Part shown: in pieces, positions 100 to 52,190 of the stretch
Layout: every line of letters starts with the position of its first letter
Numbering within the stretch: the first letter of the stretch is position 1
Source: an uncultured Bacilli bacterium
Lineage (GTDB): Bacteria; Bacillota_I; Bacilli_A; RF39; UBA660
Assembly (NCBI GenBank): GCA_947628095.1
Contig: CANQYO010000002.1
Location: 1-52,258 of the forward strand
DNA: 52,258 nt
Reading direction: 5' to 3'
The notes under the pieces: model-generated
What the model saw: the letters and a program-made list of their open reading frames with translations, nothing else
Told to the model about the DNA's origin: nothing
The model's database searches: none
Program-made: the position numbers and the translations under genes

Positions 100-333
100 T
101 CATAATTCTTTACGGTCAATATTTTTTATAGTAAGTTCTTCATTACCTTTATCAACAAATCTAATCTCAAAACCACATTTTTCTGCGATTAAATTAAGAG
201 TTTTAAAACTAGGTTCACGATAACCTGTTTCATAACCACTTAAAGTTGTATTAGAAATATTACATTCATTGGCTAACTCAGTTTGAGTTTTATTTGCTAT
301 TTTCCTCATAGTTTTTATAAATTTACCAATCAT
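100..333 (-). CDS. XRE/Cro-C1-type helix-turn-helix transcriptional regulator (77 aa)
   Basis: The N-terminal 'KTQTELANECNISNTTLSGYETG' fits the HTH_3 pattern. The gene is divergent from the large surface-protein gene at 462. Confidence 0.8.
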   Translation of the reverse strand: MIGKFIKTMRKIANKTQTELANECNISNTTLSGYETGYREPSFKTLNLIAEKCGFEIRFVDKGNEELTIKNIDRKEL

Positions 334-461
334 ATAACATCATTTTAAGTATTGCATAAAAGATTATGTTTTTCTTAAATTTTCGCGATATGCGTAATTT
401 CAAAAAATAAAATTTTAGCTATGATATTATGAATTTATAGAATAATGAAAGGATAAATATA

Positions 462-3050
462 ATGAATAATATAGGCAAAAGAAAAATAGGGATAATAATA
501 ACAATAGTAGTAATGTTATTAACAGTCTTTGGAGTAACATATGCATTTGTGAATTTTACTTTAAATGGTAATGAAAATTCTGTTCTTGTAACAGGAGATA
601 TCTACATGAACTATACCGAAACTAACCAAATAAATTTAACAGATGCAGTTCCAATGGATAAAGATGCAGCATTGAAATTAAGTGACAATGTATTTAATTT
701 TACAATAACAGGTAAAAACCAAAGTTCAAAAGACATCTATTATGGAATAAGTATAGTATATGGAGAAGAACAAAAAAGTAAAACCAGACTAAAAGACGAG
801 GACATAGATGTCTATCTAACAAGTGGAGAAGATGTGTTAGTAAATGCCAATAGATACAAGACTTTAAATGATACAAGAATATGGGCAGAGAAAATAGGTG
901 CTAATACAGAAAACTATACAAAAGAATATTCATTAAGATTATGGGTAGACGAGAGTGTAATAATATCAGATACAGATGCAAATAAAGATTATACCCAAGA
1001 TGTATGGAACAATAGTTATGCTAGTTTTAAAGTCAAAGTAGATGGAAACTTAAATGAAATGAATGTACCACTTGAAGTAGATTATCAAAATTCTTATTAT
1101 GAAAATGGTAAAACTTATTTCATGATAAGTATAAGTAATTACTTAAACCCAAGTGAAAAAGGAATAAGACTTACAAGTTCTGATATTATGAAGCTTGATA
1201 TAACAACAAGTAACAAAGATGTAGTTTTCACATATCAAGACGATGCAGGAAATAAAAGTGAAGATGGTCAAAATTTATCAAGTATCAGTCAAACTTACTC
1301 ATTTGAAGAAAATAAAAAAGTAAAGATGCAAGTATTTGTAAGTTCTAAAAATGATATTGACTTAAAAGCTGATATAAATATAAAATTAAGTAAAAATGAT
1401 ACAGAAACTTATGAGATATTAAAATACATGCATATAAAAGGAGCAAAAGATTATTGTAAAAATAATGGTTTCTCTAATTTTGCAGATTGTTTACTAGTTT
1501 CAGAACAATTAAGTAATACAGTAGAAGAAGCTAAAGAAGAAATAACTAAAAAAGGAAATGCTGATACTAGTAAAACAGCACCTGAAATAACATATGTAGC
1601 AACAGCTGAAACACCTGGAGCAACAGTTCCTCAAAATACTGCTTATGTTTTTGCTTATGCTGATAGTGCAACTTTTAATACGAATAATGGAACATTTACA
1701 TTAACTGGAAATTTAAAAGAAAATCAAAGTTTAAGTGATGCCATGAATGGAAAGTGGACTTGTGGTGCAACTAATAATAATGTAACAAATTGTCCTACCA
1801 TTTATCATATAACATCAATGGAAGGAAATACAATAAAGAGTGCAAGTAGTAGAACATATCAAATTACAAATGCCATAGAAAGTGAAGTTGGGTTATATGA
1901 AACAGAAGATAATGATGGTGACAGTTTTTATTATCGAGGAGATGTAAAAAATAACAATGTTAAATTTGCAGGTTTTTATTGGAAAATAATAAGAATAAAT
2001 GGAGATGGTTCTATTAGATTAATTTATAATGGAACAAAAGAAAATTCTAATGGTTATGATGCTTCATCTGTAACAGGAGCAGGAGTAGCATATAATGAAA
2101 GATATGCAGACCCAGTCTATGTTGGTTATATGTATGGAGATAGTTTTAGTGAAACTCCAGTTAAAAGTAAAATAACAGCAGATTACGGAGATATGCAAGC
2201 AAATACAAAATATTATTTTGGAACAGGCTATATACCTGATGCTAGTACTAAAACATTTAAGTTAAGTGGTGCTGATTATCAAGGTACATTTACCGAATGG
2301 AATAGTAATAATAAATTAAGTGAAGGTTATAAATATACTTGTAAGCAAACAACAGCAGATGGAACATGTCAATTTTTAATGGAAATAATAAAATTTAATA
2401 ATGCAACTTCAGTTACAACGTATTTTTGGACATATGGTTCAACAAGTTATGCAAATGCAAGACTTGATACAGTAAGTAGTAATGCAAAAAAACAGTTAGA
2501 AAATTGGTATATAACAAAATTTTCAGAAACAAATGAAGCTGGAAAAAAGGCATACGAATATGTAGAAACAAACGCCACATTTTGTAATGATAGAAGCTTC
2601 TCAAGTGGAGATGGTTATACAACAACTCCTACAACCTATTATGGAGCATATGATAGAAATGTAAATAAAAAAGCAGCAAGCTTAGTTTGCCCAACAGATG
2701 CTGACTTGTTTAGTGCAAGTGGAGCTAAAAATGGTAATAAAAAACTTGCTCAGCCAATTGGTTTAATAACAGCCGACGAAGTAGCATTAGCAGGAGGTTT
2801 ATATAACACCAAAAATGAAAGGTATTTTCTATATACAGGACAAATTTTTTGGACAATGTCACCTTTCGATTTCTATACTTGGCGTGCTCATGCCAGTGTG
2901 TTTGATATTCGTGAAGCTGGTGAATTTCATACTGGACATGTTCCTTGGACCGCTCCAGGCTTACGTGCAGTTATAAATCTAAAAAAAGAAGTATTATTAA
3001 ATGATGGAAATGGTACAATGGACGACCCATATACTGTTAAACTTGCTTAG
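462..3050 (+). CDS. Large secreted or membrane-anchored surface protein of unknown function, with a TasA/SipW-signal-like N-terminus
   Basis: 862-aa ORF with a basic N-terminus and one hydrophobic helix, followed by 'TYAFVNF...TGDIYMNY'. The first ~195 aa are paralogous to ORF 51537..52106. The C-terminal half has 'FYYRGDVKNNNVKFAGFYWKIIRINGDGSIRLIY' and 'GLRAVINLK' motifs that I cannot name. Confidence 0.6.
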   Translation: MNNIGKRKIGIIITIVVMLLTVFGVTYAFVNFTLNGNENSVLVTGDIYMNYTETNQINLTDAVPMDKDAALKLSDNVFNFTITGKNQSSKDIYYGISIVYGEEQKSKTRLKDEDIDVYLTSGEDVLVNANRYKTLNDTRIWAEKIGANTENYTKEYSLRLWVDESVIISDTDANKDYTQDVWNNSYASFKVKVDGNLNEMNVPLEVDYQNSYYENGKTYFMISISNYLNPSEKGIRLTSSDIMKLDITTSNKDVVFTYQDDAGNKSEDGQNLSSISQTYSFEENKKVKMQVFVSSKNDIDLKADINIKLSKNDTETYEILKYMHIKGAKDYCKNNGFSNFADCLLVSEQLSNTVEEAKEEITKKGNADTSKTAPEITYVATAETPGATVPQNTAYVFAYADSATFNTNNGTFTLTGNLKENQSLSDAMNGKWTCGATNNNVTNCPTIYHITSMEGNTIKSASSRTYQITNAIESEVGLYETEDNDGDSFYYRGDVKNNNVKFAGFYWKIIRINGDGSIRLIYNGTKENSNGYDASSVTGAGVAYNERYADPVYVGYMYGDSFSETPVKSKITADYGDMQANTKYYFGTGYIPDASTKTFKLSGADYQGTFTEWNSNNKLSEGYKYTCKQTTADGTCQFLMEIIKFNNATSVTTYFWTYGSTSYANARLDTVSSNAKKQLENWYITKFSETNEAGKKAYEYVETNATFCNDRSFSSGDGYTTTPTTYYGAYDRNVNKKAASLVCPTDADLFSASGAKNGNKKLAQPIGLITADEVALAGGLYNTKNERYFLYTGQIFWTMSPFDFYTWRAHASVFDIREAGEFHTGHVPWTAPGLRAVINLKKEVLLNDGNGTMDDPYTVKLA

Positions 3051-3101
3051 GTAATGAATGAGAATAATAAGAATGAAAAAAAATAAAAGAAAATAGAGTT
3101 A

Positions 3102-3130
3102 ATACATGGAACATTTTTCATGTATTTTTC
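3102..3130 (+). terminator. Rho-independent terminator after the 862-aa gene
   Basis: Stem ATACATG/CATGTAT followed by a T-run. Confidence 0.6.
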
Positions 3131-3185
3131 TATGTAAATCTATAAAAAATTGCTTTTAAATTTATTTTAACCTTAACATATAATA

Positions 3186-3194
3186 TGATATAAT
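3186..3194 (+). promoter_or_regulatory. Extended -10 promoter element TGaTATAAT upstream of murG
   Basis: Exact TGnTATAAT about 17 nt before the murG start. Confidence 0.45.
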
Positions 3195-3210
3195 GAATTT
3201 AGGTGATAAA

Positions 3211-4305
3211 ATGCGAGTTATTATAAGTGCTGGAGGAACAGGAGGTCATATTTATCCTGCTCTTAGTATCATTAATAAAATAAAAGAAGAAAGTCCTAAA
3301 AGTGAATTTTTATATATCGGAACAACAAATCGTATGGAGCATACAATAATACCAGAGAAAAATATTCCATATCTTGGAATAGAAATGATTGGATTGAGTA
3401 AAAATCCTATTAAATGCATAAAAAGTATTAGACTTCTTTTTAAAGCTAATTCAATAGTTCGAAAAGAAATAAAAAAGTTTAATCCTGATATTGTGATTGG
3501 AGCCGGTGGTTATGTTACATTTCCCGTTATATATATAGCTAAAAAATTAGGTTATAAAACATTCATTCATGAACAAAATTCAATTCCTGGAAAATCTAAT
3601 CGAATTTTAGCAAAATATGCAGATAAAATTGCTGTTAGTTTACCTGGAAGTTTAGAATATTTTCCTAAAGATAAAGCAGTTTTAACTGGAAACCCTAGAA
3701 GTAGTGAAGTTCTTGAAGCTAAAGAGATTAATAAACAAGAATTAGGATTTAATGAAAATAAAAAGTTAGTTTTAATAGTCATGGGGTCTCTTGGTTCAAT
3801 GACAATAAATAATGAGTTAAAAAAAATATGTACAGAATTTGAAAAAAGGCCATATGAAGTTTTAATTGTAACTGGTGATAATTATTATAATGAATTTAAA
3901 GATTTAAAATTATCTAACGTTAAATTTGTTCCTTTTTTAAATAATATGTTGAATGTTTTAAAAATATGTGATTTAATAGTAACTCGAGCCGGAGCTTCAA
4001 CGATAGCTGAAGTCACGACAATTGGTTTACCTTGTATTTTGGTACCTAGTCCTTATGTTGCTAATAACCATCAATATTATAATGCATTAGAACTTGTTAA
4101 TAATAAAGCAGGACTGTTATTAGAAGAAAAAGATTTTAATTACCAAAACTTACTTGAAAAAATAGATATTGTATTTAATAACGAAAAGTTGTATAATGAA
4201 ATGCATATTAATTCTTTGAAATTAGGTAATCCAAATAGCAATGATAATATTTATCAGTTGATTTTGGAATTGGTAGGTCGAGAATATGGAAAAAATAATA
4301 AATGA
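3211..4305 (+). CDS. murG: UDP-N-acetylglucosamine--N-acetylmuramyl-(pentapeptide) pyrophosphoryl-undecaprenol GlcNAc transferase
   Basis: 'MRVIISAGGTGGHIYPAL' G-loop and a GT28 C-terminal 'TRAGASTIAE'. I chose the ATG at 3211 behind AGGTGA rather than the ORF-track start at 3193. Confidence 0.9.
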   Translation: MRVIISAGGTGGHIYPALSIINKIKEESPKSEFLYIGTTNRMEHTIIPEKNIPYLGIEMIGLSKNPIKCIKSIRLLFKANSIVRKEIKKFNPDIVIGAGGYVTFPVIYIAKKLGYKTFIHEQNSIPGKSNRILAKYADKIAVSLPGSLEYFPKDKAVLTGNPRSSEVLEAKEINKQELGFNENKKLVLIVMGSLGSMTINNELKKICTEFEKRPYEVLIVTGDNYYNEFKDLKLSNVKFVPFLNNMLNVLKICDLIVTRAGASTIAEVTTIGLPCILVPSPYVANNHQYYNALELVNNKAGLLLEEKDFNYQNLLEKIDIVFNNEKLYNEMHINSLKLGNPNSNDNIYQLILELVGREYGKNNK

Positions 4306-5194
4306 AATAATGTCTAAAAAGATAGGAGATATTATTGTTGATGCTAAGTTATCTAAATTTACAACTTATAAAGTAGGGGGAACTGCTAAGCTTTTAGTTT
4401 ATCCTAAAAATGTTGATAAGTTAGTAGAATTGATGGAAATAATTTTAAGAGAAGATATAAAATACTTTATTTTAGGAAATGGAAGTAATGTTTTATTCAG
4501 CGATAAAGTTTATGATGGAATTATTATTAAATTAGATAACTTTGACGATATAGAAATAACAGATAATATGGTTAGAGTTGGAGCAGGATATAATTTAATT
4601 AAACTTGCTAATGAAGTTGCTAAACTTGGTCTTTCAGGACTTGAATTTGCATCAGGTATTCCTGGAACAGTAGGTGGAGCAGTTTTTATGAATGCTGGGG
4701 CTTACCAAAGTGAAATGAAAAGTGTTATTAACAGTGTATATGTTTTAACACCAGATTTAAAAGTAATAACTTTAACTAATGAAGAAATGAAGTTTAAATA
4801 TCGTGAAAGTTTTATTCAAAATCATAAAGGTTATATATGTTTAGGGGTAATTCTTAAATTAGGATATGGTAAAAAAGAAGAATTACAAGAAATAATTCGT
4901 GATAGAAAGCTTCAAAGAAAGAGAACTCAACCTCTTGAATACCCTACAGCTGGTAGTGTTTTTAGAAACCCTCGTGGTATGTTTGCAGGAAGTTTAATCG
5001 AAAATTTAAATTTAAAAGGTTATAAAATAGGTGGAGCTAAAATAAGTGAAAAGCATGCTAATTTTATAATTAATACAGGAACAGCAACGGCTAAAGATAT
5101 CAAAGATATAATAGATGTTATAAAAAAGAAAGTTAAAAAAGAATATGGAATAGCTTTAAGAGTTGAACAAAGATTAGTAAATTGGGACGATTAA
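4286..5194 (+). CDS. murB: UDP-N-acetylenolpyruvoylglucosamine reductase
   Basis: FAD-binding motifs 'YKVGGTAKLLV' and 'LGNGSNVLF', plus C-terminal 'AGSVFRNP' and 'SEKHANFIIN'. It overlaps the murG end by 20 nt. Confidence 0.9.
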   Translation: MEKIINEIMSKKIGDIIVDAKLSKFTTYKVGGTAKLLVYPKNVDKLVELMEIILREDIKYFILGNGSNVLFSDKVYDGIIIKLDNFDDIEITDNMVRVGAGYNLIKLANEVAKLGLSGLEFASGIPGTVGGAVFMNAGAYQSEMKSVINSVYVLTPDLKVITLTNEEMKFKYRESFIQNHKGYICLGVILKLGYGKKEELQEIIRDRKLQRKRTQPLEYPTAGSVFRNPRGMFAGSLIENLNLKGYKIGGAKISEKHANFIINTGTATAKDIKDIIDVIKKKVKKEYGIALRVEQRLVNWDD

Positions 5195-30334: not shown

Positions 30335-30826
30335 ATGAAATTTATAAATAGAAACAAATTTACAATTATAGCTATTGTTATTTTTATAGGTTTATTATTT
30401 TTAGGAGTAGAAGCAAAAAGATTATTGGTACCTGATGATAATAAAGCTGCTTATGGTGATAGATTAGATGGAATAGAAAATCATAAATTAGCAAGTGATT
30501 TATTTAAAAATATTGAAACTAAATTAAAAGAAAATACTAAAGTTTTAAAAGTTACAAATACTGTTCATGGAAAGATAATTAATTTAATAATTACAGTTGA
30601 TAAAGATGTTACTGTAAATGATGCAAAGACTATTGCTAATAGTACGGTTGCTATGTTTGAAAATAAAGAATTAGATTTTTATACCCTTCAAGTTTTTGTT
30701 GCTAAAGAGGACGACGCTTTAAATAATTTCCCAATAATTGGTTATAAGGGGACAGGAAGTAGTGAACTTAAGTTTACTAAAGACCGTGAAATAACAAAAG
30801 AAGAGGAAACGACTGATGAAAAATAA
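30335..30826 (+). CDS. Hypothetical N-terminally anchored or secreted protein (163 aa)
   Basis: ATG at 30335 behind GGAGGA, with one TM helix. It overlaps the start of the next gene. Confidence 0.5.
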   Translation: MKFINRNKFTIIAIVIFIGLLFLGVEAKRLLVPDDNKAAYGDRLDGIENHKLASDLFKNIETKLKENTKVLKVTNTVHGKIINLIITVDKDVTVNDAKTIANSTVAMFENKELDFYTLQVFVAKEDDALNNFPIIGYKGTGSSELKFTKDREITKEEETTDEK

Positions 30827-32867
30827 AAAAAGATTATTTATATTAATTGGAGTAATAGCTGTTCTTGTATTTATTGCCTTGTTTTTTATTTATTATTATC
30901 ATGAATCAAATGTTTTAACGTCAGATGATAAAAAATGGATAAGTGAAAATGGAACTAAATTAATTGATATTGAAGTGTTTAATGATGTTGCGGTTTATGG
31001 AATGAATGGTAATGGTGTAGTCTTTGACTTTTTAAATTATGTATCAGAAGAATCTAATTTACAATTTAATAAAATTCCTTATTTAAAAGAAACTGGAACT
31101 ACTAATAATACATATAAAATTGAAATAATTGATGGTAGTCAAACTTTATCGTCAAATCAAATTTTACTTTTTGAAGATAATTATGTAACAGTTTCTAAAG
31201 ACAGTACAATAAAAATTAATAAAATCAGTGATTTTTCAAATTATACAATTGGTGTTTTAGATAAAGAAGAATCAAATATTAGTTATTATTTAAAAGGAGC
31301 TGACAATGTTAAATACAATCCATATAAAACAATGGAAAATTTATTTAAAGCTCTTGATGAAAATGAAGTAAACATGATAATTGTTCCTAATATTTTATCA
31401 CTTGAAAATACTATTAGTAATGATAAATATTTCTTAAATTATTTTTTCACTGATATAACTAAAAAAGTTGTATTCACATTAGATTCAAATAAACCAGAAT
31501 TAAGTAATATTTTAAAAAAATATTTTGAATATTGGGTTAAAGAATATTATGTTGATGATTATAATAAAATACTTTTAAATTATTATGTTGAGAAAAAAGA
31601 TATTAATGATAAAACGAGAACTGATTTATTAAGTAAAACTTATGTATATGGTTATGTTGAAAATGAACCATATGAAATTACTAGAGGTAATAATTTAAAA
31701 GGAATAGCAGCAGAATATATTAATCGTTTAATAAGACTTACAGATATAGATTTTTCATATCGTAAATATAATTCTTTAGATGATTTAAATAAAGCAATTA
31801 AATCAGGTGAAATCGATGTTTATTTTGATTATATAGGAAATCAAAATAGTAATTATTTAAAAACGGTTTCAACTTTTGTTGAAAATTATGTTGTTTTAGG
31901 ACGTATAAGTGATGATTATGTTATTTCTTCATTTGAAGGGTTGAAGGGTAATAATGTTTATATGTTAGAAAATAATAAATATTTACAAAATTATATTAAA
32001 TCAGGTGCAATGGTTAATGTAAATTTAGCTCCAAATGTTAAAAAATTAATTGAAGATGCTAAGGAAAATAAAGCCTTAATTATTGTTGATAAAGAAGTTT
32101 ATTCATATTATAAAAACAAAGAATTTAAAGATTATGAGATACTTTATTCTGATATTATGAGTAATGATTATTCTTTTATGGTTAAAAGTGATAATAGTTC
32201 ATTTTATAGTTTATTTAATTATGTTATAAATACTAATTCTTATTATAAATATCGTAATAGTGCTTTAAATAATTTAAATACATCTTTCTTTGAAACTTCA
32301 AGTTTTGAAGAGTTATACTTATTAATTTTAGCAATTATTTTAATTCCAATTATCGTGTTAGTTTTAATTTTTGTATTTATAAAAAATCGTCATAAGTTAA
32401 AATTAGTTAAAAAAGAAGATAGAAAAAAATATACAGATATGTTAACATCTCTTAAGAATCGTAATTACTTAAATTTACAAATCGACTCTTGGAATTTAAG
32501 TAAAGTTTATCCTCAAACAATTGTAGTTGTTGATTTAAATAATATAAAATATGTAAATGATAATTATGGTCGTGAAAAAGGTGATAATTTAATTGTTAAA
32601 GCTGCAAGTATTTTAGTAAATACCCAACTTGAAAATACGGAAATTATCAGAAGTGATGGAACTGAATTTATTATTTATTTAGTTGGTTATAGTGAAGACC
32701 AAATTGATGTATATTTGAAAAAATTAAAGAAAGAACTTAATGAGCTTCCATATGGTTTTGGAGCTAGTGTAGGTTTCAGTATGATATTTGATAATATTAA
32801 GACAATCGATGATGCAATCAATGAAGCTATGATTGATATGCAAAGCGATAAAGAAAGTTATCGTTAA
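30816..32867 (+). CDS. Membrane sensor with an extracytoplasmic solute-binding-like region, a TM helix and a degenerate GGDEF domain
   Basis: N-terminal TM helix, ~480 aa extracytoplasmic region, a second TM helix, then 'LTSLKNRNYL', 'VVVDLNNIKYVNDNYGREKGDNL' and 'RSDGTEF' where RxGGDEF is expected. Confidence 0.75.
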   Translation: MKNKKRLFILIGVIAVLVFIALFFIYYYHESNVLTSDDKKWISENGTKLIDIEVFNDVAVYGMNGNGVVFDFLNYVSEESNLQFNKIPYLKETGTTNNTYKIEIIDGSQTLSSNQILLFEDNYVTVSKDSTIKINKISDFSNYTIGVLDKEESNISYYLKGADNVKYNPYKTMENLFKALDENEVNMIIVPNILSLENTISNDKYFLNYFFTDITKKVVFTLDSNKPELSNILKKYFEYWVKEYYVDDYNKILLNYYVEKKDINDKTRTDLLSKTYVYGYVENEPYEITRGNNLKGIAAEYINRLIRLTDIDFSYRKYNSLDDLNKAIKSGEIDVYFDYIGNQNSNYLKTVSTFVENYVVLGRISDDYVISSFEGLKGNNVYMLENNKYLQNYIKSGAMVNVNLAPNVKKLIEDAKENKALIIVDKEVYSYYKNKEFKDYEILYSDIMSNDYSFMVKSDNSSFYSLFNYVINTNSYYKYRNSALNNLNTSFFETSSFEELYLLILAIILIPIIVLVLIFVFIKNRHKLKLVKKEDRKKYTDMLTSLKNRNYLNLQIDSWNLSKVYPQTIVVVDLNNIKYVNDNYGREKGDNLIVKAASILVNTQLENTEIIRSDGTEFIIYLVGYSEDQIDVYLKKLKKELNELPYGFGASVGFSMIFDNIKTIDDAINEAMIDMQSDKESYR

Positions 32868-35002: not shown

Positions 35003-35191
35003 GATATTTTCCTTTCTATTCTTAAGTTATTGTTTTATATATTTTATTTTATACTTATTTTTTTAAAATAGCAATTATCTTTAAATTTTTTTATGATTTA
35101 GAAATTTACTTTACTGTTTACTAAAAGTCTTAAAAAAAGGTTAATTTTTAATGAATTTTATGTTATACTTTATTTATATGTGAGGTACTTT

Positions 35192-36565
35192 ATGAAAAAA
35201 ATGAAGTTAATAGTAATATTTTTTATTGTATTTTGTATGTTTTTTAGTACAAAAAATGTATTAGCTGCTGATAATAAAGTTAAAATGAAAATTATAGATG
35301 GTCCAGGTTGGTTTCATACTGGTTTACAAAAAATTGATATTAGTGTAGCTCAAGTATTAAAAGATGGAACTTATGTTTGTCCTAATGTTTGGCTAAGTTG
35401 GACTGAAACTAAGTTTATATGGACTTCTAGGTCATACGAATTAAGTATTACTGAACCAGCCAATTATAATAGACTAGCATTGCAAGCTACTAATTCAGCT
35501 TCAGATTCGACTAAAGAACTTTCTTGTCATTATGATTATAATGATTCAAGTGGAGAAATTCCTCATATAGAATTTGAAATAAGTTATAAGGCTAGTGAAA
35601 ATGAGAAAAAAGTTAAAGAAACTTGTAATTATGAATGGTCTAATGCTTATAATGATGTAGCGTATAAAAATACTAAAGTAAGTTTTGTAATTTATGAAGA
35701 TGGTACAGTTGGTAATGAAACATTTACTCCAGGTACTGGTAATGTGAATTGGAATATGAATTGGAAATTTGATAAAGATAGTCAGCCTATTTCAGCTTGT
35801 CCTGAGTATTTAGTTGATAAATATCTTGATAGAACTACCTTTAAACCTGCTACAGCAAGTGAGGTAACAACTGACTTTTACTATAAATATACTGGTCAAA
35901 TTCTTGACCCTTCTGAAGCCGATGGAATAGCAATTTATGTAAAATCTACTACCTCAAATATTAAAATTGTTGTTAATTCGGCTGGTGGTGGTTATAGTTA
36001 TACTTTATATGACTATAAATCTAATTCTACTTCAGATATAACAAGTAAAGTGAAAAACCCAGATGGCTTGAGTACTTCATTTGGAGGAGACAATAGTGGA
36101 GCACCAACATATTTAGTTTTTGATAAAAATGAAGATAGTTATACATTTCAAAACAAAACAAGCTTTGGGGCAGACAATTATATTCTACTTGATAAAATAA
36201 ATCAGCTGTATTTGGAAAAGGGAAAAGATTATGAAAATACTTGCCGAGCTTTATTTGGAGATAGTGAATCTGGGTTTTCAACTTTTTTAAATAATAATAT
36301 ATTTAGAGTAGTTTATATAGCAGTTCCAATAATTTTAATATTATTAACATCATTTGATTTTGCGAAGGCTGTATTTAATAGTGATTCTGATGGAATACAA
36401 AGTGCATTTAAAAAATTTGGAAAAAGAATAGTAGCAGCTGTATGTATATATTTAGTGCCAACTATAATAATCTTTGCTAGTAGTTTAATAGGTGGCAGTG
36501 AGGTTTCTCAATGTGCAAGACAACTTCAAAATATAGATTCGGAATATAATTTTGGTTCTAATTAA
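35192..36565 (+). CDS. Secreted orphan protein with a C-terminal two-helix membrane hairpin
   Basis: Signal peptide ending 'NVLA/ADNK', ~370 aa of Asn/Ser/Thr/Tyr-rich sequence with several Cys, and two C-terminal TM helices (VVYIAVPIILILLTSF and IVAAVCIYLVPTIIIFASSLIGG). Confidence 0.6.
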   Translation: MKKMKLIVIFFIVFCMFFSTKNVLAADNKVKMKIIDGPGWFHTGLQKIDISVAQVLKDGTYVCPNVWLSWTETKFIWTSRSYELSITEPANYNRLALQATNSASDSTKELSCHYDYNDSSGEIPHIEFEISYKASENEKKVKETCNYEWSNAYNDVAYKNTKVSFVIYEDGTVGNETFTPGTGNVNWNMNWKFDKDSQPISACPEYLVDKYLDRTTFKPATASEVTTDFYYKYTGQILDPSEADGIAIYVKSTTSNIKIVVNSAGGGYSYTLYDYKSNSTSDITSKVKNPDGLSTSFGGDNSGAPTYLVFDKNEDSYTFQNKTSFGADNYILLDKINQLYLEKGKDYENTCRALFGDSESGFSTFLNNNIFRVVYIAVPIILILLTSFDFAKAVFNSDSDGIQSAFKKFGKRIVAAVCIYLVPTIIIFASSLIGGSEVSQCARQLQNIDSEYNFGSN

Positions 36566-44118: not shown

Positions 44119-44658
44119 ATGACAAGAGTTAAAAGTGGAGTACAAACAAAACAAAGACATAAGAAAGTATTAAAAGATGCTCGTGGTTACTTTGGTAGTA
44201 AGCATAGATTATATAAATCAGCTAAAGAGCAATTAATGCATTCACGTGTATATGCTTATCGTGATAGAAGACAAAATAAAAGAGAATTTAGAAAACTTTG
44301 GATTACAAGAATTAATGCTGCTTGTAGAATGAATGATATTAGTTATTCTAAATTTATAAATGGACTTAATAAAGCTGGAGTTGAAATTAATCGTAAAATG
44401 TTATCTGAAATAGCTATTAATGATATGGATGCATTTAAAGAATTAGTTGAAATTTCTAAAAAGGGAGAAGTAAAAGAAGTTAAGGTAGTTAAAGAGACAA
44501 CTAAGATTTCAAAAGATACAAAACCTGAAACTAAAAAAGAAGAAAAGAAAAGTTTAAGCTCAATGACAGTTGCTGAACTTCGTGAACTTGCTAAATCTAA
44601 GAAAATTGAAGGTTATAGCACAATGAAAAAAGCTGAATTATTAGAGGCTTTAAAATAA
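44119..44658 (+). CDS. rplT: 50S ribosomal protein L20 with a ~60-aa C-terminal K/E-rich plus Rho_N/SAP-like extension
   Basis: Canonical L20 core '[31 protein letters not shown]...[11 protein letters not shown]', then an extra tail ending '[34 protein letters not shown]'. Confidence 0.9.
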
Positions 44659-44741: not shown

Positions 44742-45719
44742 ATGACAGTAGTTTCAATGAATTATTTATTAGAAGCAGGTGTTCATTTTGGACATCAAAA
44801 AAGAAGATGGAATCCAAAGATGAAAGAATACATCTTTGAAGCCAGAGATGATATTTATATTATCGATTTACAAAAAACAGTTAAGAAATTAGAAGAAGCT
44901 TATAATGCTTTACTAGAAATAGCTAAAAATGGTGGTAAAGTAATTTTTGTAGGTACTAAAAAACAAGCTAATGAAGCATGTTTAGAATGTGCAACTCGTA
45001 CTGAAATGTATTATGTAACAGAACGTTGGTTAGGAGGAACTTTAACTAACTTCAAAACAATTCGTTCTCGTGTTAAAAGATTAGAAGAATTAGAAAAAAT
45101 GCAAGAAGATGGAACATTTGATTTATTACCTAAAAAAGAAGTTGCTCTTTTAAATAAAGAATATGAAAAATTAAATAGATATTTAAAAGGAATTCGTGAT
45201 ATGCATGAACTTCCTCAAGCAATGATTGTTGTTGACCCAAAACAAGAAGAAATTGCTATTCGTGAAGCAAATAAATTAGGTATTAAAACTTTTGGTATTG
45301 TTGATACTAATTGTGACCCAGATGTTTTAGATTATCCAATTCCAGGAAATGATGATGCAGTTCGTGCTGTTAAAGTTGTTTTAAATGCTTTAACTAATGC
45401 TATTGCTGAAGCTAATGGAAATGAAGTTGTTGATTGTGGTAGTGACGATGCTAAAAATGAAACTGAAGAAGATGCAACTAAAGAAGTAAAAAAAGAAATT
45501 AAAAAAGAAGAAAAAAAATCTGAAGATAAAAATACTAAAACCAAAGTTGAAAAAGTTAATAAAGAATTAAAAGAAGAAAAAGAAGTAAAAGAAACAAAAA
45601 AGAGTGATACAAACATTAAAGAATTAACTTTAACAGAATTAAAAGAAATGGCTCGTGAAAGAGGAGTTAAAGGTTATTCTAAAATGAAAAAAGATGAATT
45701 AATAGAAGCTTTAAAATAA
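44742..45719 (+). CDS. rpsB: 30S ribosomal protein S2 with a ~95-aa C-terminal K/E-rich plus Rho_N/SAP-like extension
   Basis: '[19 protein letters not shown]' and the rest of the core, then a tail ending '[34 protein letters not shown]'. Confidence 0.95.
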
Positions 45720-45728
45720 GGAGGAAAT

Positions 45729-46604
45729 ATGTTTAGTGCAAGTGATGTTAAAGCATTAAGAGAAAAAACAGGAGCTGGAATGCTCGATTGTAAAAAAGCA
45801 CTTGATGAAACTAAAGGTGATATTGATGCAGCAATCGATTGGTTACGTGAAAAAGGAATTGCTAAAGCTACTAAGAAAAGTGACCGTATAGCTGCTGAAG
45901 GTTTAAGCCAAATTTTTATAAATCAAGATAAAGCTGTTATCTTAGAAGTTAATAGTGAAACTGATTTTGTATCTCGAAATGAAGAATTTAAAAACTTTGT
46001 TAATACTTTAGGAGAAGTATTACTAAATAATGATGTTAAAACAATGGAAGAAGCTTTAGAACTTCAAACTGCTGAAGGTAAAGTTTCTGAATTAATAACT
46101 CAAATTACAGCTAAAATTGGAGAAAAAATTAGTTTTAGAAGATTTGAAGTTGTAGAAAAAAAGAGTGAAGAGAATTTTGGCTCATATTTACATATGGGTG
46201 GAAAAATTGCCTCATTAGTAAAAATTTCTGGTGGAAATGAAAGTGTTGCTAAGGATGTTGCAATGCATGCAGCAGCTATGAGACCATTATATTTAAATGA
46301 AGCTAGTGTTCCAAGTGAAGTTTTAGAACGTGAAAAAGAAATTATGCGTCAAGAATTATTAAATGAAGGAAAACCAGCTGATAGAATAGATAACATTTTA
46401 GTTGGAAAAGTTCGTAAATATTATGAAGAAGTTTGCTTAGAAAATCAAATTTTTGTAAAATCTGAAAATAAGGAAACTGTTGGTAAATATTTAGAGAATA
46501 ATGGAGCTAAATTAATTTCTATGACAAGATATGAAGTTGGAGAAGGAATTGAAAAGCGCCAAGAAAATTTTGCTGAAGAAGTAATGAATCAAATAAATGG
46601 TTAA
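45729..46604 (+). CDS. tsf: Elongation factor Ts
   Basis: 'VKALREKTGAGMLDCKKAL' UBA-like N-terminus and 'VNSETDFVSRNEEF'. Confidence 0.95.
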   Translation: MFSASDVKALREKTGAGMLDCKKALDETKGDIDAAIDWLREKGIAKATKKSDRIAAEGLSQIFINQDKAVILEVNSETDFVSRNEEFKNFVNTLGEVLLNNDVKTMEEALELQTAEGKVSELITQITAKIGEKISFRRFEVVEKKSEENFGSYLHMGGKIASLVKISGGNESVAKDVAMHAAAMRPLYLNEASVPSEVLEREKEIMRQELLNEGKPADRIDNILVGKVRKYYEEVCLENQIFVKSENKETVGKYLENNGAKLISMTRYEVGEGIEKRQENFAEEVMNQING

Positions 46605-46631
46605 AAGGTGAATTAAATTCATCTTTTTTTT
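46605..46631 (+). terminator. Terminator after tsf
   Basis: AAGGTGAA-TTAAA-TTCATCTT followed by T8. Confidence 0.65.
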
Positions 46632-46700
46632 ACTTTAAAACAATTTTCATTTACTTATTATTTTTAAAATGATATACTTTTTAAGTAGATTGGAGGCAAT

Positions 46701-47699
46701 ATGGGGATTTTTAGTAAAATAAAAAAAGCTTTTAAAAAAGAAGAATTAGAAGAAAATAAAGAAGAAGTAAAGAAAGAAATCGATTTATATACTGAAGGGT
46801 TGAGTAAAACAAGAAATAATTTTGTTAATAAATTAATTAGTTTAAATAATAAAACAAAGAAAATAACAGAAGAATATTTTGACGAATTAGAAGATATTTT
46901 AATCATGGCTGATATTGGAGTTAATACAGTTTTAAACTTTATTAGTCGTTTAAAAGAAAGAGTAAAACATGAAAATATAACAGATTTAAATTATTTGCAA
47001 GAAGTAATAATAGACGAATTATTTATTATTTATGTTGATAATTCTATTTTAAGTAATAAAATTAAATACAATGATAATGGACCAACTGTACTTCTTTTTG
47101 TTGGAGTTAATGGAGTTGGTAAAACAACAACGATTGGAAAAATTGCTAACAAGTTAAAAAAAGAAGGTAAAAGTGTTTTAATGATAGCTGGAGATACCTT
47201 TAGAGCTGGAGCAATAGAACAACTTGAAGAATGGAGTAAAAAAGTTGGTACAAGTTTTGTAAAAGGAAAAGAAGGAAGTGACCCTTCAAGTGTTATTTAT
47301 GATGGACTTTTAAAAGCTAAAGAAGAAAATATAGATGTAGTATTGATTGATACAGCTGGACGTTTACAAAATAAAGTTAATTTAATGAAAGAACTTGAAA
47401 AAATGAATAAAGTAATTGGAAGTATAGTTGAAGGTTCACCTCAAGAAACTTTACTTGTAATTGATGCTACAACTGGGCAAAATGGAATTAGTCAAGCTAA
47501 AAGTTTTAAAGAAATAACTAATATTACGGGGATAGTTTTAACGAAACTTGATGGTACAGCTAAGGGTGGAATAGTTTTAGCTATAAAAGAGGAATTAGAT
47601 ATACCAGTTAAATATATTGGTTTAGGAGAAAAAGTTGATGATTTAGAGTCTTTTGATATAGAAAAATATATTTATGGGTTATTTAAGGATATGATATAA
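46701..47699 (+). CDS. ftsY: Signal recognition particle receptor FtsY
   Basis: 'LFVGVNGVGKTTTIGK', 'DTAGRLQNK' and 'VLTKLDGTAKGG' SRP-GTPase motifs. Confidence 0.95.
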   Translation: MGIFSKIKKAFKKEELEENKEEVKKEIDLYTEGLSKTRNNFVNKLISLNNKTKKITEEYFDELEDILIMADIGVNTVLNFISRLKERVKHENITDLNYLQEVIIDELFIIYVDNSILSNKIKYNDNGPTVLLFVGVNGVGKTTTIGKIANKLKKEGKSVLMIAGDTFRAGAIEQLEEWSKKVGTSFVKGKEGSDPSSVIYDGLLKAKEENIDVVLIDTAGRLQNKVNLMKELEKMNKVIGSIVEGSPQETLLVIDATTGQNGISQAKSFKEITNITGIVLTKLDGTAKGGIVLAIKEELDIPVKYIGLGEKVDDLESFDIEKYIYGLFKDMI

Positions 47700-47992
47700 T
47701 GGAAAAATTAATTTATTTAAACAATTTATATGATTTATATGGAATATTATTAACAGAAAAACAACAAAAGTACTTTGAAGAGTATTATTTTAATAATTTA
47801 TCTTATGGAGAAATAAGTGAAAAATATGGAATAAGTAGAAATGCTATATTTCATCAACTTAAAATAATTGAAAATAAATTATTAGATTATGAAAAAAAGT
47901 TAAAATTATACTATAAAAAAGAAAAAATTAATGATATAATAAACAATATAGACGATAGTAAAATAAAAAAAGAACTTGAAGATTTAATTTAA
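47699..47992 (+). CDS. ylxM: YlxM/UPF0122 putative HTH protein
   Basis: 'LYDLYGILLTEKQQKYFEEYYFNNLSYGEISEKYGISRNAIFHQLK'. Its start overlaps the ftsY stop (TAATG). Confidence 0.85.
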   Translation: MEKLIYLNNLYDLYGILLTEKQQKYFEEYYFNNLSYGEISEKYGISRNAIFHQLKIIENKLLDYEKKLKLYYKKEKINDIINNIDDSKIKKELEDLI

Positions 47993-48013
47993 AAAGAATA
48001 TTAGGAGGAAAAT

Positions 48014-49765
48014 ATGTTTGATAGAATAGTTTATATTAGTGACCATGGAGCTCATGTTAAGGTTAATGGAACCCTTCAAACAAATCTAATTAATCAACAT
48101 TTAGTTTTTGTTGATGAAGCAGGAAGACAAGTAGTAAGTGAAGTTGAATACGTACATGATGATATTATTGAAACAAGATTTATTGGAGAAATTATTAATA
48201 ATCAATTTCAAGGTGGTATTATTAGTAAACCAAGTTTAACATCTAAAATTAGATTTTTAGAGGAAAATGAAATTTTAATGATAACTGGTAATAATCAACC
48301 AGGATTTATGACAATTGGAAATAGTCCATTTTATGATAATAAACCTGTTTACATGAGTATTAATAGTTTATTTAGTAATCATTTAACAATATTAGGTAAT
48401 TCTGGTAGTGGAAAAAGTTATGGTACAACTAAACTTTTACAATCAGTTTTTACAACTCCTAATTTTTATCCATATAAAGCGACAATGATAATTTTTGATA
48501 ATAATGGTGAATATATAAATGCTTTTAATAATTTAAATAGTTTAAATCCTAATTATCATTTTAAAGTTATTACTACAAGCTCTTATAATAATTATGAAAA
48601 ATTATGTATTCCAGTATGGCTTTTAAATATAGATGATTTGGCACTTCTTTTAAGACTTGAAAAAGTTAGTCAATTAACTCTTCTTGAAAGAATGATTAAA
48701 TTAGCTAAAATTTTCTCTTTAAGTGATGAGACTAGTTATCGTTATAAGAATCATATTATTGCTAAAGCAATGTTATCTATATTCTATTCTAATAAAATGC
48801 CTGGTACAAAACGTAATGATATTTTTGATATTTTTAATACATGTACAACAAATGAATTCAATATGGAAGCAGAAGTTAAAGGTGCTGGTTATACAAGAAA
48901 ATTTAGAGAATGTTTTAATGTTGATAGCCAAGGAAACTTTACAGAAAGTATTTTAGTTTCTCAATATATTGCTTCTTTTGTTGACCCAGCTCTTGATAAT
49001 TATGAACCAACAACATTCAATAAATATACATTAGAAGATTTAGAGAAAGCTTTAAACTTCACTTTAATAAGTGAAAACTGGTTAAATAATGAAAATACTT
49101 ATGGGGATAGTATAGCAGTTAAGGTAAAATTGCATTCTTTAATCATAAGTGAAAATAAAAAATTCTTTGATTATCCTAATTTTATTGGAGTAGAAGAATA
49201 TTTATCAAGTTTAGTAATTCAAAATGGTCAAAAATATCAACTTTTAAATGTTAACTTAGAAGATATTGATGATAGTATTGCTAAAGTAATTGTTAAAATA
49301 TTTTCTCGTATTATATTTGAATATACTAAGGCTTTACAAAATAGAGCTAGTATTCCATTTAATTTAGTAGTTGAAGAGGCACATCGTTATATAAAAAGTG
49401 GGGAAGATATTGATTTAATTGGTTATAATATATTTGATAGAATTGCTAAAGAGGGACGTAAGTATGGAATTTTATTGACTTTAATTTCTCAAAGACCAGT
49501 TGAACTATCAGAAACTGTTATGTCTCAATGTGCAAATTTCTTAATATTTAAAACGACCCATCCAAGAGATATAGAATATATTGGTAAGATGGTACCAAAT
49601 ATCACTGAGGAAATAGTTGAAAAGCAAAAAGCTTTACAACCAGGTTATTGTTTATGCTTTGGAGCTGCTTTTAAAGTTCCACTTATTTTGAAAGTTAGTT
49701 TACCAAATCCTGTTCCTGCTAGTGCTAACTGTGATGTTCTTAAAACTTGGACTGTTAATAATTAA
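48014..49765 (+). CDS. HerA/FtsK-superfamily DUF87-type ATPase
   Basis: Walker A 'LGNSGSGKSYG', Walker B-type 'LVVEEAHRY', 'GRKYGILLTLISQRPVELSETVMSQCANFLIFK', and an N-terminal barrel-like region. RBS is AGGAGG. Confidence 0.75.
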   Translation: MFDRIVYISDHGAHVKVNGTLQTNLINQHLVFVDEAGRQVVSEVEYVHDDIIETRFIGEIINNQFQGGIISKPSLTSKIRFLEENEILMITGNNQPGFMTIGNSPFYDNKPVYMSINSLFSNHLTILGNSGSGKSYGTTKLLQSVFTTPNFYPYKATMIIFDNNGEYINAFNNLNSLNPNYHFKVITTSSYNNYEKLCIPVWLLNIDDLALLLRLEKVSQLTLLERMIKLAKIFSLSDETSYRYKNHIIAKAMLSIFYSNKMPGTKRNDIFDIFNTCTTNEFNMEAEVKGAGYTRKFRECFNVDSQGNFTESILVSQYIASFVDPALDNYEPTTFNKYTLEDLEKALNFTLISENWLNNENTYGDSIAVKVKLHSLIISENKKFFDYPNFIGVEEYLSSLVIQNGQKYQLLNVNLEDIDDSIAKVIVKIFSRIIFEYTKALQNRASIPFNLVVEEAHRYIKSGEDIDLIGYNIFDRIAKEGRKYGILLTLISQRPVELSETVMSQCANFLIFKTTHPRDIEYIGKMVPNITEEIVEKQKALQPGYCLCFGAAFKVPLILKVSLPNPVPASANCDVLKTWTVNN

Positions 49766-49779
49766 GGACAGGTGTTAAT

Positions 49780-51471
49780 TTGACTAAGACTGAGAATAAA
49801 GAGGTATTATTAAAAAATAAAAAGTCTTTTATTATAAAATTTATAAGTAGTTTATTTATACGAGCTTTTCTTTTGATTATTCCAATTTATTATAGTTATT
49901 CAATTGATGCTTTAACAAGAGGAAATTATAATGCTGCTTATCATATGATTATTATGTTTTTTGTCTTTACTGTTTTGTACCGAATTTCAGAAGTTATTAA
50001 TCAAATAACATATTACAAACTATATTCTAATTTATATAAAACTTATTTAGAACTTGGACTTAAGAAAACTTGTAATAATTCTGTTTATAGTTTATCTCGC
50101 TTTAGTTTGTCAGAATATGGCAATATTATGAGTGAAGATTTTGAAACATTGAGTGATTACTATGCAACTATGGTTATTCGAATAGTTGAAATATTAGAAG
50201 CAATTTATATTGTAATTTATTTCTTTACAATTAATAGTATTTTAGGTTATTTAACTTTGTTTGTTTGCCTAGTAGTTTTGTTTTTCTTGATTTTCTATAA
50301 TGGAATTATTGCTAAAACTAATAATTCAAGAAAGCTCCGTCATGATAAAAGAATAAGTTTGTTTCAAGAACTTTTACTTTCAATGAAAGAAATTAAAGGA
50401 TTTAATATCTTTAATGTTGTTAAAGAAAGAACAATGACAAATGTTTCTGATTATTTAAAATGGAATGATAAATTAAATATAGATAAATATAATTTAAAAC
50501 AAATTTCTTTAGGACTAATTGATGTCTTTGGTTGCTTATCACTTATACTTGGTATAAGTTTGATTATAGAAGGAGAAGTAACAATCGGAGTTTTAACAAT
50601 AATTTATAATTATTATACTAAATTAAATTCTTTATTTAATTCTATTATTTTACTTTTTGAAAGTAATATAAATGTTCGAGTTGCTAGACTTCGAATTCAT
50701 AAATTATTTCAATATGCAACTAATAATTATGGAGAAATTAAAGATAATAATGTAAAAGGTAAAATTGAATTTAAGAATGTTTTATATGGAAATCGTCATG
50801 ACCCAATTTTAAATAATGTTTCATTTTCTATTGAACCAAATACATTTAATGTTATAACCGGTTTAACTGGAAGTGGAAAAACGGGAATATTTGATTTACT
50901 TTTAAGATATAATAGGGAGCATGAAGGAGAAGTTTTAATTGATGATATAAAAGTTTCTAATTATGATGCTAAACAACTTGGCTCTTTAGTTAGTTTTGTT
51001 CGAAAGAACCCAACTTTTTTCAACATAAGTATTAGAGATAATTTAAGTATATTTGATGCCAATTTTGAAAATATCGTAGCAATTTGTAAAGAGTTTAAAA
51101 TTCATGATTACATTATGGCTCTTAGTGATGGTTATGATACTGTTTTAGAAACAGATGCTTCAAATATTAATAGTGATGTTAAATTTGTTTTAGCTATTAT
51201 TAGAGTTTTGTTAAAAAGAACTAAAATTATGTTATTTGATGAAACTTTTGATTATTTAAGTAATGATATAAGCTCTATAATATTAGAAGTTATAAAAAGT
51301 ATGAAAAATGATAATACAATTTTAATAATTACTAAAAATAAAAAAATTATTGAAGATATAGCGGTTGATAAAGTAATTATGCTTAATAAAAATAAAATTT
51401 TAGCAAGTGGTTTACATAAAGATTTAATGACAAATGATGTAGAGTATAAAAAAATATTCAAGAAATTATAA
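49780..51471 (+). CDS. ABC-exporter-like protein (6-TM domain plus degenerate nucleotide-binding domain)
   Basis: TTG start behind AGGACAGGTG and a type-I exporter TMD. Walker A 'GLTGSGKT' and Walker B 'IMLFDE' are present, but LSGGQ is replaced by 'INSDV', the Q-loop Gln by Lys ('VRKNP'), and there is no H-loop His ('ITKN'). Confidence 0.75.
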   Translation: MTKTENKEVLLKNKKSFIIKFISSLFIRAFLLIIPIYYSYSIDALTRGNYNAAYHMIIMFFVFTVLYRISEVINQITYYKLYSNLYKTYLELGLKKTCNNSVYSLSRFSLSEYGNIMSEDFETLSDYYATMVIRIVEILEAIYIVIYFFTINSILGYLTLFVCLVVLFFLIFYNGIIAKTNNSRKLRHDKRISLFQELLLSMKEIKGFNIFNVVKERTMTNVSDYLKWNDKLNIDKYNLKQISLGLIDVFGCLSLILGISLIIEGEVTIGVLTIIYNYYTKLNSLFNSIILLFESNINVRVARLRIHKLFQYATNNYGEIKDNNVKGKIEFKNVLYGNRHDPILNNVSFSIEPNTFNVITGLTGSGKTGIFDLLLRYNREHEGEVLIDDIKVSNYDAKQLGSLVSFVRKNPTFFNISIRDNLSIFDANFENIVAICKEFKIHDYIMALSDGYDTVLETDASNINSDVKFVLAIIRVLLKRTKIMLFDETFDYLSNDISSIILEVIKSMKNDNTILIITKNKKIIEDIAVDKVIMLNKNKILASGLHKDLMTNDVEYKKIFKKL

Positions 51472-51480
51472 CTTATTAAC

Positions 51481-51509
51481 TTGAAAAACATAATAAAATT
51501 TGATATTAT
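51481..51509 (+). promoter_or_regulatory. Promoter of the 189-aa TasA-like gene
   Basis: TTGAAA, a 17-nt spacer, then TATTAT, with TGa giving an extended -10. Confidence 0.55.
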
Positions 51510-51536: not shown

Positions 51537-52106
51537 ATGGAAGCTGAATTACGTAAAAAAAGTAGTGGGAAAAAAAGAGTGTTAATTGTAGCTTTGATAC
51601 TTGTTATGTTTTTAGGTATTTCTTTTGCATCTGTAAATTTCATATATAATTTTAATGATTCTAGAGATAATAAATTAAAAACAGGTCTTGTATCTTTAGC
51701 TTTTGAAGAAGGAAATGAAAATATTAATTTGCAAAATACTTTGCCAATGTCTGACCCTGTTGGATTAGAAAATGACCCTTATGTTTTTACAATTACAAAT
51801 ACTAGCAAAGTTCCTATTAATGCTAGAGTTATACTTGATGTTGATTCTAAAAGTACTCTTCCAGTAGGTGCTGTTAGATATGCACTTTATGTAAACGACG
51901 AATTAATTGAAAAAGATAGTTTAGCAAATATAAAAGATAATACTTTATATCTTGCTTCTCAATTTTCTCCTAATCAAACATTAAATTTAAAAGTTGTTTT
52001 TTGGGTAGATTATTACTATGACGAATCAGGAAAAACTTTCAGTGCAAGAATTAAAGTAAGTGGTGAAAGTTATGATGTTATTCCTGAAGAGAGTGTTCAA
52101 AATTAA
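51537..52106 (+). CDS. Small secreted protein with a TasA/SipW-signal-like N-terminus, paralogous to the N-terminal domain of the 862-aa protein
   Basis: Basic N-terminus, TM helix, 'SFASVNF...LKTGLVSLAF', 'INLQNTLPMSD', 'YVFTITNTS', 'VVFWVD' and 'FSARIKVSG'. It aligns along its length with residues ~1-195 of ORF 462..3050. Confidence 0.6.
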   Translation: MEAELRKKSSGKKRVLIVALILVMFLGISFASVNFIYNFNDSRDNKLKTGLVSLAFEEGNENINLQNTLPMSDPVGLENDPYVFTITNTSKVPINARVILDVDSKSTLPVGAVRYALYVNDELIEKDSLANIKDNTLYLASQFSPNQTLNLKVVFWVDYYYDESGKTFSARIKVSGESYDVIPEESVQN

Positions 52107-52148
52107 TAAATAAAACCATAATAAAACTAGGTTCTTAAACATTAAGGG

Positions 52149-52179
52149 GTGATGAAGTAAAATTCATCACTTCTTTTTT
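52149..52179 (+). terminator. Terminator after the TasA-like gene
   Basis: GTGATGAA-GTAAAA-TTCATCAC followed by a T-run. Confidence 0.7.
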
Positions 52180-52190
52180 AGACAAAAAAA

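Follow-up and report, generated by a model that had tools for sequence, protein, structure and literature searches.

A HerA-type ATPase without an apparent neighboring partner in the signal recognition particle operon of uncultured Bacilli

Bacterial HerA is currently viewed as a motor that works in a pair, its counterpart being NurA, SIR2, or DUF4297. Here, we describe a herA gene that lies in a signal recognition particle (SRP) operon on a 52,258-nucleotide (nt) stretch of DNA from an uncultured Bacilli bacterium (GenBank assembly GCA_947628095.1, contig CANQYO010000002.1, positions 1 to 52,258; "the window" below). The closest described systems are SIR2-HerA (Nezha; PDB 8wld, 8sub, and 8j4u; PMC11472057, PMC11514289), DUF4297-HerA (8xau/8xav, 9c1m, and 8ziq), for which residues E426/E427 and a trans-acting arginine finger, R455/K456, have been described (PMC11291478), and HerA-NurA of archaea and Deinococcus (4d2i and 9x1m; PMC12977600, PMC9960219). 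All characterized HerAs act on DNA (PMC11291478, PMC12977600, PMC5448004). In function, the nearest precedent for a housekeeping HerA, likened by description only, is HepA of Thermus thermophilus, a bacterial HerA that all strains of the genus possess, that is involved in tolerance of UV and heat, competence, and DNA donation, and that is reported to be of archaeal origin (PMC5448004). Unlike the herA of the window, HepA belongs to another phylum and is not encoded in an SRP operon. Our literature search returned no account of a HerA in an SRP operon, nor any of a clade of housekeeping HerAs without partners in Bacilli. The reading that we favor, with a probability of roughly 55%, is that the window encodes a partnerless HerA that is passed on vertically, is expressed constitutively, and serves as a housekeeping translocase, probably on DNA, rather than a machine made of HerA and an ATP-binding cassette (ABC) protein or a defense module.

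The protein family itself is already known. The herA product scores 74.2 bits against the Pfam DUF87/HerA profile (PF01935; cut-off, 23.2; 2e-20), in agreement with an earlier interpretation made from the letters alone (here called the sequence-only reading), and the PADLOC HerA model PDLC04102 matches amino acids (aa) 2-581 at 1.7e-99. Its sequence matches in PDB are HerAs only, from the DUF4297-HerA, SIR2-HerA, HerA-NurA, and TdpA systems, the best being 9c1m of DUF4297-HerA (9e-41; family profile, 1e-61). The AlphaFold2 model, computed with 47 diverse relatives in the alignment, has a predicted local distance difference test (pLDDT) score of 87.3 and a predicted TM score of 0.83; an earlier model from a 14-sequence alignment was discarded (pLDDT, 54.7). 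It has the architecture of the family, with an N-terminal HAS beta-barrel (about aa 1-115), a RecA-like core (aa 116-213 and 405-565), and a helical insertion of about 190 aa (aa 214-404), and hydropathy analysis of the protein detected no hydrophobic or transmembrane segment. The best Foldseek matches of the model are full-length chains of bacterial anti-phage HerAs (8yhx, 8xav, 9c1m, 8wld, and 8sub; E values of 1e-31 to 1e-23, TM scores of 0.6-0.73).

The Walker A, Walker B, and arginine finger motifs are all intact (Table 1). K157/S158 and R455/K456 of DUF4297-HerA have conserved counterparts in aligned blocks, the finger residues falling on R482/K483 in a profile alignment to 8xau, and E426/E427 would correspond to E454/E455, judged by motif and by position upstream of the aligned finger. 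The segment LTLISQRPVELSETVMSQCANFLIFK spans aa 488-513. The helical insertions of the two proteins cannot be aligned at the sequence level, and the DNA-contacting R284/K287 of DUF4297-HerA could not be mapped; because of this failure to align, GYTRKFR (aa 292-298), a conserved basic hairpin, is put forward as a candidate only for DNA contact. From its conserved catalytic residues, the product is probably a catalytically intact HerA-type ATPase, and it presumably forms a ring hexamer.

SIR2-HerA, the nearest outgroup in both the profile search and the tree, has the same beta-barrel, RecA core, and helical insertion and also shares the Walker A motif, the EE of Walker B, the RK finger, and a C-terminal PNPxPxS...W motif. 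Unlike SIR2-HerA, the HerA of the window is encoded among housekeeping genes, is vertically inherited, and has no SIR2 homologue adjacent or in its flanks, as judged by tblastn with SIR2 proteins; it is also shorter, its model lacking the C-terminal arm domain of Paenibacillus SIR2-HerA (PMC11472057), and it has no N-terminal extension. Neither an equivalog-level NCBIfam score nor an island context with patchy distribution was found: the anti-phage and archaeal HerA equivalogs of NCBIfam give 96-152 bits overall against cut-offs of 800-970. HerA-NurA has the fold and motor motifs in common with our protein but is more distant, appearing in the Foldseek list first at rank 50 and scoring 96-114 bits against cut-offs of 800-970, and the immediate neighbors of herA in the window are ylxM and an ABC gene rather than nurA.

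Two further identities were considered and rejected. FtsK/SpoIIIE belongs to the same superfamily, and herA genes of sister clades lie by sepF, divIVA, and gpsB, but the FtsK_SpoIIIE match is weak and limited to the P-loop region (PF01580, 22.2 bits against 24; aa 109-175 only) and there is no membrane anchor. Unlike FtsK, the protein has the HerA-type beta-barrel and helical insertion, and an FtsK gamma domain was not detected, though it was not specifically sought. The VirB4/TraC/VirD4 ATPases of type IV secretion systems likewise match only at the P-loop and below threshold (TrwB_AAD_bind, 20.2 against 20.5; plasmid_TraB, E value of 0.008), and no type IV secretion genes occur among the profiled window genes, so that the sequence-only reading was right to set this identity apart.

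How is herA placed in related genomes? Our survey took in 55 loci that hold close or moderately distant relatives of this HerA, with the neighbors annotated by BLAST. In 54 of them, ylxM precedes herA at a distance of 0-26 nt, and what follows herA varies by clade. In clade A (20 loci; HerA 86-98% identical to that of the window), a degenerate ABC gene stands 3' of herA and ffh is not adjacent. In clade B (14 loci; 62-68% identity), herA is followed by a gene for a cadherin-like surface protein and usually then by ffh, and in clade C (48-53% identity), ffh lies directly 3' of herA in 15 of 17 loci, mostly at 10-30 nt. P0121, a relative whose tail is long and disordered, is also found in an SRP context, ftsY-x-ylxM-herA. 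Because the 3' gene varies by clade and the ABC gene is confined to clade A, the conserved unit is ftsY-ylxM-herA-ffh, a placement that was absent from the sequence-only reading. The ftsY and ylxM genes, which that reading had named correctly, are in the window; ffh is not, yet both sister clades have it 3' of herA. The addition of the ABC gene is specific to one lineage and coincides with the lost adjacency of ffh.

Some of these loci carry unusual extra genes. The lone exception to the ylxM rule, L019 of a close relative, has a cassette resembling a diversity-generating retroelement (217..4396) directly 5' of herA in place of ftsY-ylxM, comprising a 544-aa surface protein whose N-terminus resembles the 189-aa protein of the window, a 119-aa open reading frame (ORF), a protein resembling bAvd, and a YMDD-bearing reverse transcriptase of the RVT_1 type. 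The clade-B surface protein combines cadherin-like beta-sandwich repeats with a signal peptide and a membrane anchor at the C-terminus (L001 9755..11188; L004 9766..11406; L008 9752..11413) and evolves fast, with 33-39% identity between genomes. The gene between ftsY and ylxM in the genome of P0121 (L060 5197..5601) encodes 134 aa without a family match.

Pairwise identities of HerA follow those of FtsY, YlxM, and Ffh (Spearman rho of 0.71, 0.81, and 0.66, respectively); herA has been vertically inherited with the genes of the SRP operon. Within clade A, the median ratio of nonsynonymous to synonymous substitution rates (dN/dS) is 0.117 for HerA, the lowest in the operon, compared with 0.154 for FtsY, 0.233 for YlxM, and 0.245 for the ABC protein, which evolves twice as fast as HerA (171 pairs each for HerA and ABC). 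Both herA and the ABC gene are real genes under purifying selection.

The herA gene is separated from ylxM by 21 nt (47993..48013) and from the ABC gene by 14 nt (49766..49779). Neither gap folds better than shuffled sequences (minimum free energy of 0 and -2.3 kcal/mol, respectively), and neither contains a terminator-like site. The ORF coordinates, the HerA motifs, and the hairpin-free gaps given by the sequence-only reading were thus reproduced by translation and folding, and its proposal that herA and the ABC gene are cotranscribed with ftsY-ylxM is probably correct. A terminator-like match inside herA (49660..49681; 7 pairs including G-T) was attributed to chance because its position is conserved coding sequence. 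The herA gene has the Shine-Dalgarno sequence AGGAGG 8 nt upstream of its ATG and resembles its neighbors in GC content, overall and at third codon positions (GC3; window GC, 25.3%; herA GC3, 10%).

An exhaustive profile search returned 332 HerA representatives at E<1e-30, falling into two tiers, with full-length relatives of about 580 aa ranked above proteins of 635-685 aa. First-tier genes occur among housekeeping genes, in arrangements that are specific to a clade and stable within it: PP2C-herA-sepF-divIVA (about 25 loci), yqeG-yqeH-herA, yqeK-herA, herA lying upstream of dnaA-dnaN and divergent from rpmH, herA in divergent orientation to a GpsB/DivIVA gene, herA-dnaE, and herA alone beside ltaS. 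For the second tier, all three proteins looked up (P0136, P0137, and P0147) abut a SIR2_2 gene in defense islands that also hold HsdR, GmrSD, Mrr, and an Eco57I-type methylase. A neighbor-joining tree splits all partnerless HerAs from the SIR2-linked ones, and the HerA of the window appears to belong to a monophyletic partnerless clade. The named sources among the relatives ("Acholeplasma sp." CCY27191, "Candidatus Faecisoma," and "Bacilli bacterium"; one circular genome of 1.31 Mb) point to uncultured gut Bacilli.

Could this HerA nevertheless be an anti-phage or anti-plasmid ATPase, a remnant or variant of SIR2-HerA with its effector encoded elsewhere or supplied by the ABC protein? Its best profiles are those of defense HerAs (PDLC04102 at 1.7e-99 and HerA_antiphage_2 at 1.9e-44), its closest solved structures are SIR2-HerA and DUF4297-HerA, and its nearest outgroup is SIR2-linked. 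However, the NCBIfam scores of 152 bits (HerA_antiphage_2) and 144 bits (HerA_antiphage) are far under the respective cut-offs of 850 and 800, and the C-terminal arm domain is missing. A tblastn search with three SIR2 partners gave no match in the window or in the flanks of 141 partnerless loci (1.5 Mb in total), and the island genes found around the SIR2-linked HerAs that were looked up did not appear where neighbors of partnerless loci were identified. No DUF4297/Cap4-like nuclease, nurA, mre11, or rad50 was noticed among the identified neighbors either, although no dedicated search was made; with that limit, the statement of the sequence-only reading that NurA, Sir2, and DUF4297 partners are absent holds. 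Location in essential operons, codivergence with SRP genes, and very low dN/dS are the opposite of the patchy, island-borne pattern of the outgroup. A defense role, which the same reading had raised as a possibility, is therefore very improbable.

Both tiers show some distinctive termini. Low-complexity S/T/N/P/Q-rich tails of 80-360 aa occur in several partnerless HerAs, at the C-terminus in P0121, P0122, and P0126 and at the N-terminus in P0124, and also in P0125. The P0122 tail holds three EHNPALDFG repeats, and P0121 and P0126 end in a common ...(N/S)FI(E/D)NM(N) motif; such motifs may be short linear docking motifs. In the SIR2-linked tier, P0145 and P0147 (L143 5001..7058) have an acidic ...DDLPF end, like the C-terminal tip of bacterial single-stranded DNA-binding protein.

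The gene 3' of herA in the window had been described as coding for an ABC-exporter-like membrane protein with six transmembrane segments. About six hydrophobic segments at aa 18-274 and an ABC_membrane match (PF00664, 42.3 bits, 1e-10) agree with that description, but it omitted the C-terminal nucleotide-binding domain (ABC_tran, PF00005, 53.3 bits, 6e-14; both matches above threshold): the protein is a full half-transporter with both domains of a type I exporter in one chain. It is ABCB/HlyB-like, and among named families it comes closest to those that export peptides and proteins, such as HlyB, PrtD, and bacteriocin exporters. The canonical Q-loop, LSGGQ signature, and H-loop histidine are lacking. 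In all 21 orthologues, the Q-loop glutamine is replaced by K or R (T in one), LSGGQ by IN[STNG]DV, and the H-loop histidine by K or R, and the protein retains the D-E of Walker B. As a homodimer, it should be impaired in hydrolysis. Heterodimeric type I exporters with one degenerate site, such as TM287/288 (3qf4/4q4j), have the same fold and a noncanonical ATPase domain, and TM287 is among the PDB matches. Unlike TM287/288, the ABC protein has no canonical partner half-transporter nearby, there being no second or canonical ABC exporter gene among the profiled window genes, and a single chain combines alterations of the Q-loop, signature, and H-loop with a retained Walker B glutamate.

The degenerate motifs raise the question of whether, in this clade specifically, a membrane machine is built from HerA and the ABC protein, in which the ABC protein would be the anchor or channel and a HerA hexamer the motor exporting DNA or protein, possibly including the anchored surface protein encoded downstream. 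The two genes are adjacent in 20 loci, at gaps of -25 to +18 nt, despite rearranged flanks; the degenerate motifs are conserved in the 21 orthologues, and a canonical ABC gene that could serve as partner was not found nearby; the nearest named families are exporters; and the next gene usually codes for a membrane-anchored protein. Against such a machine, two sister clades without the ABC gene possess an orthologous HerA under equal or stronger constraint, and the ABC protein evolves twice as fast as HerA. The ABC homologue search found 626 relatives at E<1e-20, and since the best 120 are all at least 68% identical, the gene is taken as restricted to clade A; HerA relatives, by comparison, number in the thousands. 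No fusion or coevolution signal was found, and operon adjacency is not evidence of interaction. We therefore consider the machine unlikely, and the HerA-ABC pairing is an ordinary operon neighborhood. The sequence-only reading had presented the two genes as a module and had named beforehand a lack of co-occurrence elsewhere as grounds for abandoning it; our survey finds the ABC gene after herA only in clade A, and for most of the HerA family the two genes do not co-occur.

A different role is also conceivable, namely that HerA works in SRP-dependent or membrane protein biogenesis, for example by remodeling SRP RNA or ribosome-nascent-chain complexes or by driving a step of protein translocation. 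Such a role would explain the fixed place of herA between ylxM and ffh. The order ftsY-ylxM-herA-(x)-ffh is kept down to 48% HerA identity, the SRP context recurs with P0121, and the extra genes 3' of herA encode membrane or surface proteins. Other partnerless branches, however, are not SRP-linked (sepF-divIVA, yqeGH, dnaA, dnaE, and ltaS), and the HerAs characterized so far all act on DNA (PMC11291478, PMC12977600, PMC5448004), which makes an SRP role quite improbable. The comparative data have weakened each of these three rivals.

A housekeeping role as a DNA translocase is favored because characterized HerAs move on DNA and the HerA of Thermus affects repair and competence. In the scenario that we propose, the HerA belongs to a partnerless clade of uncultured, small-genome Bacilli of the gut and rumen, and in the lineage of the window, herA would have become fixed between ylxM and ffh, giving constitutive transcription with ftsY and ylxM and vertical transmission thereafter. 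One subclade would later have acquired the ABC gene, displacing ffh, so that the two genes share a transcript without an obligatory partnership. HerA would act alone or with partners encoded elsewhere, as a nucleic acid translocase, most likely on DNA, in chromosome maintenance, segregation, or repair, rather than in phage defense or secretion. The neighbors sepF, divIVA, gpsB, dnaA, and dnaE are a lead to chromosome and cell cycle functions, not proof of them.

Several points count against this favored reading. Every carrier of this HerA is an uncultured organism, and the choice of DNA over RNA or protein as the substrate is drawn from family membership alone. The division and replication neighbors are suggestive but varied and may mean no more than that herA inserted into operons with high expression, and a HerA partner may be encoded elsewhere in the genome; SIR2 homologues were the only partners searched for, the neighbors not having been screened systematically for nucleases (NurA and DUF4297). 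The ftsY-ylxM-herA-ABC block of clade A also persists despite rearranged flanks on both sides, and HerA and the ABC protein may interact in that clade specifically.

A bolder version, tentative and in our view rather unlikely, makes the partnerless HerA a core cell cycle DNA motor of RF39-like small-genome Bacilli, serving segregation or resolution at division or end resection and fork repair and perhaps replacing a missing FtsK/SpoIIIE or AddAB. It might be the housekeeping ancestor of the SIR2-HerA ATPase or a domesticated defense ATPase, and in the clade of the window, it may dock on the catalytically dead ABC exporter. Our literature search returned nothing relevant on HerA with SepF and DivIVA or on RF39 with FtsK. 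A large, strongly constrained HerA clade in essential operons of abundant gut Bacilli would amount to an unrecognized housekeeping use of this motor and would offer a natural comparison for how defense systems recruit or release core ATPases. It also calls for caution: not every bacterial HerA is "anti-phage-associated," and operon adjacency such as that of herA and the ABC gene is not itself a system.

Table 1. Features of the herA locus, in window coordinates
Feature	Position	Strand	Basis
Intrinsic terminator 3' of tsf (hairpin and U-run), upstream boundary of the transcription unit	46603..46632	+	Fold of 46600-46700, sequence
Two overlapping sigma-70-like promoter matches 5' of ftsY; weak, consensus only	46634..46678	+	
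ftsY (SRP receptor)	46701..47699	+	Pfam SRP54 2.5e-78, plus SRP54_N
ylxM (SRP operon gene for a UPF0122 helix-turn-helix protein)	47699..47992	+	Pfam PF04297 1.9e-25
herA (ORF1), HerA-family ATPase, 583 aa, ATG start	48014..49765	+	Pfam, NCBIfam, PADLOC, AlphaFold2, Foldseek, hydropathy
HerA Walker A, GNSGSGKS (K134/S135)	48395..48418	+	GxxGxGKS invariant in 47 diverse members
HerA Walker B, FNLVVEEAHRY, aa 449-459 (E454/E455)	49358..49390	+	EEAHRY invariant in 47 members
HerA KEGRKYG motif, RK finger (R482/K483)	49451..49471	+	Invariant in 47 members; profile alignment to 8xau
ABC gene (ORF2), half-transporter, 563 aa, TTG start	49780..51471	+	Pfam PF00664 and PF00005, PDB alignment
ABC Walker A, GLTGSGKTG, retained	50860..50886	+	Motif survey
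ABC Q-loop, Q to K	within 50995..51021	+	PDB alignment, motif survey
ABC signature, degenerate, INSDV for LSGGQ	51166..51180	+	PDB alignment, motif survey of 21 orthologues
ABC H-loop, H to K	within 51319..51345	+	PDB alignment, motif survey
Promoter-like site with extended -10, ahead of the 189-aa gene	51481..51509	+	
189-aa protein with N-terminal membrane anchor, possibly the last gene of the unit	51537..52106	+	ORF, hydropathy, homologous domain downstream in clade A
Strong intrinsic terminator, downstream boundary of the unit	52144..52181	+	13-bp stem, -17.5 kcal/mol, z -4.25, U-run

The start of ylxM overlaps the stop of ftsY (both at 47699), and ylxM has a GC content of merely 15.6%, compared with the window mean of 25.3%, at a GC3 similar to that of its neighbors. 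The 189-aa protein has no family match. In many loci of clade A, its domain turns up again 3' of the ABC gene, often inside proteins of 500-636 aa, and it is also found at the N-terminus of an 862-aa ORF near the beginning of the window (462..3050; domain at 504..716; 36% identity over 75 aa).

Farther away in the window, a 461-aa ORF (35180..36565) is without a Pfam match, and a 683-aa protein (30816..32867) carries a C-terminal GGDEF domain behind a long N-terminal region without annotation. Ribosomal proteins L20 and S2 (44119..44658 and 44742..45719) both have Lys/Glu-rich C-terminal extensions ending in a Rho_N domain (SAP/HeH-like; PF07498, 1e-9 and 2e-10, respectively). The presence of one appended nucleic acid-binding module on two ribosomal proteins is unusual.

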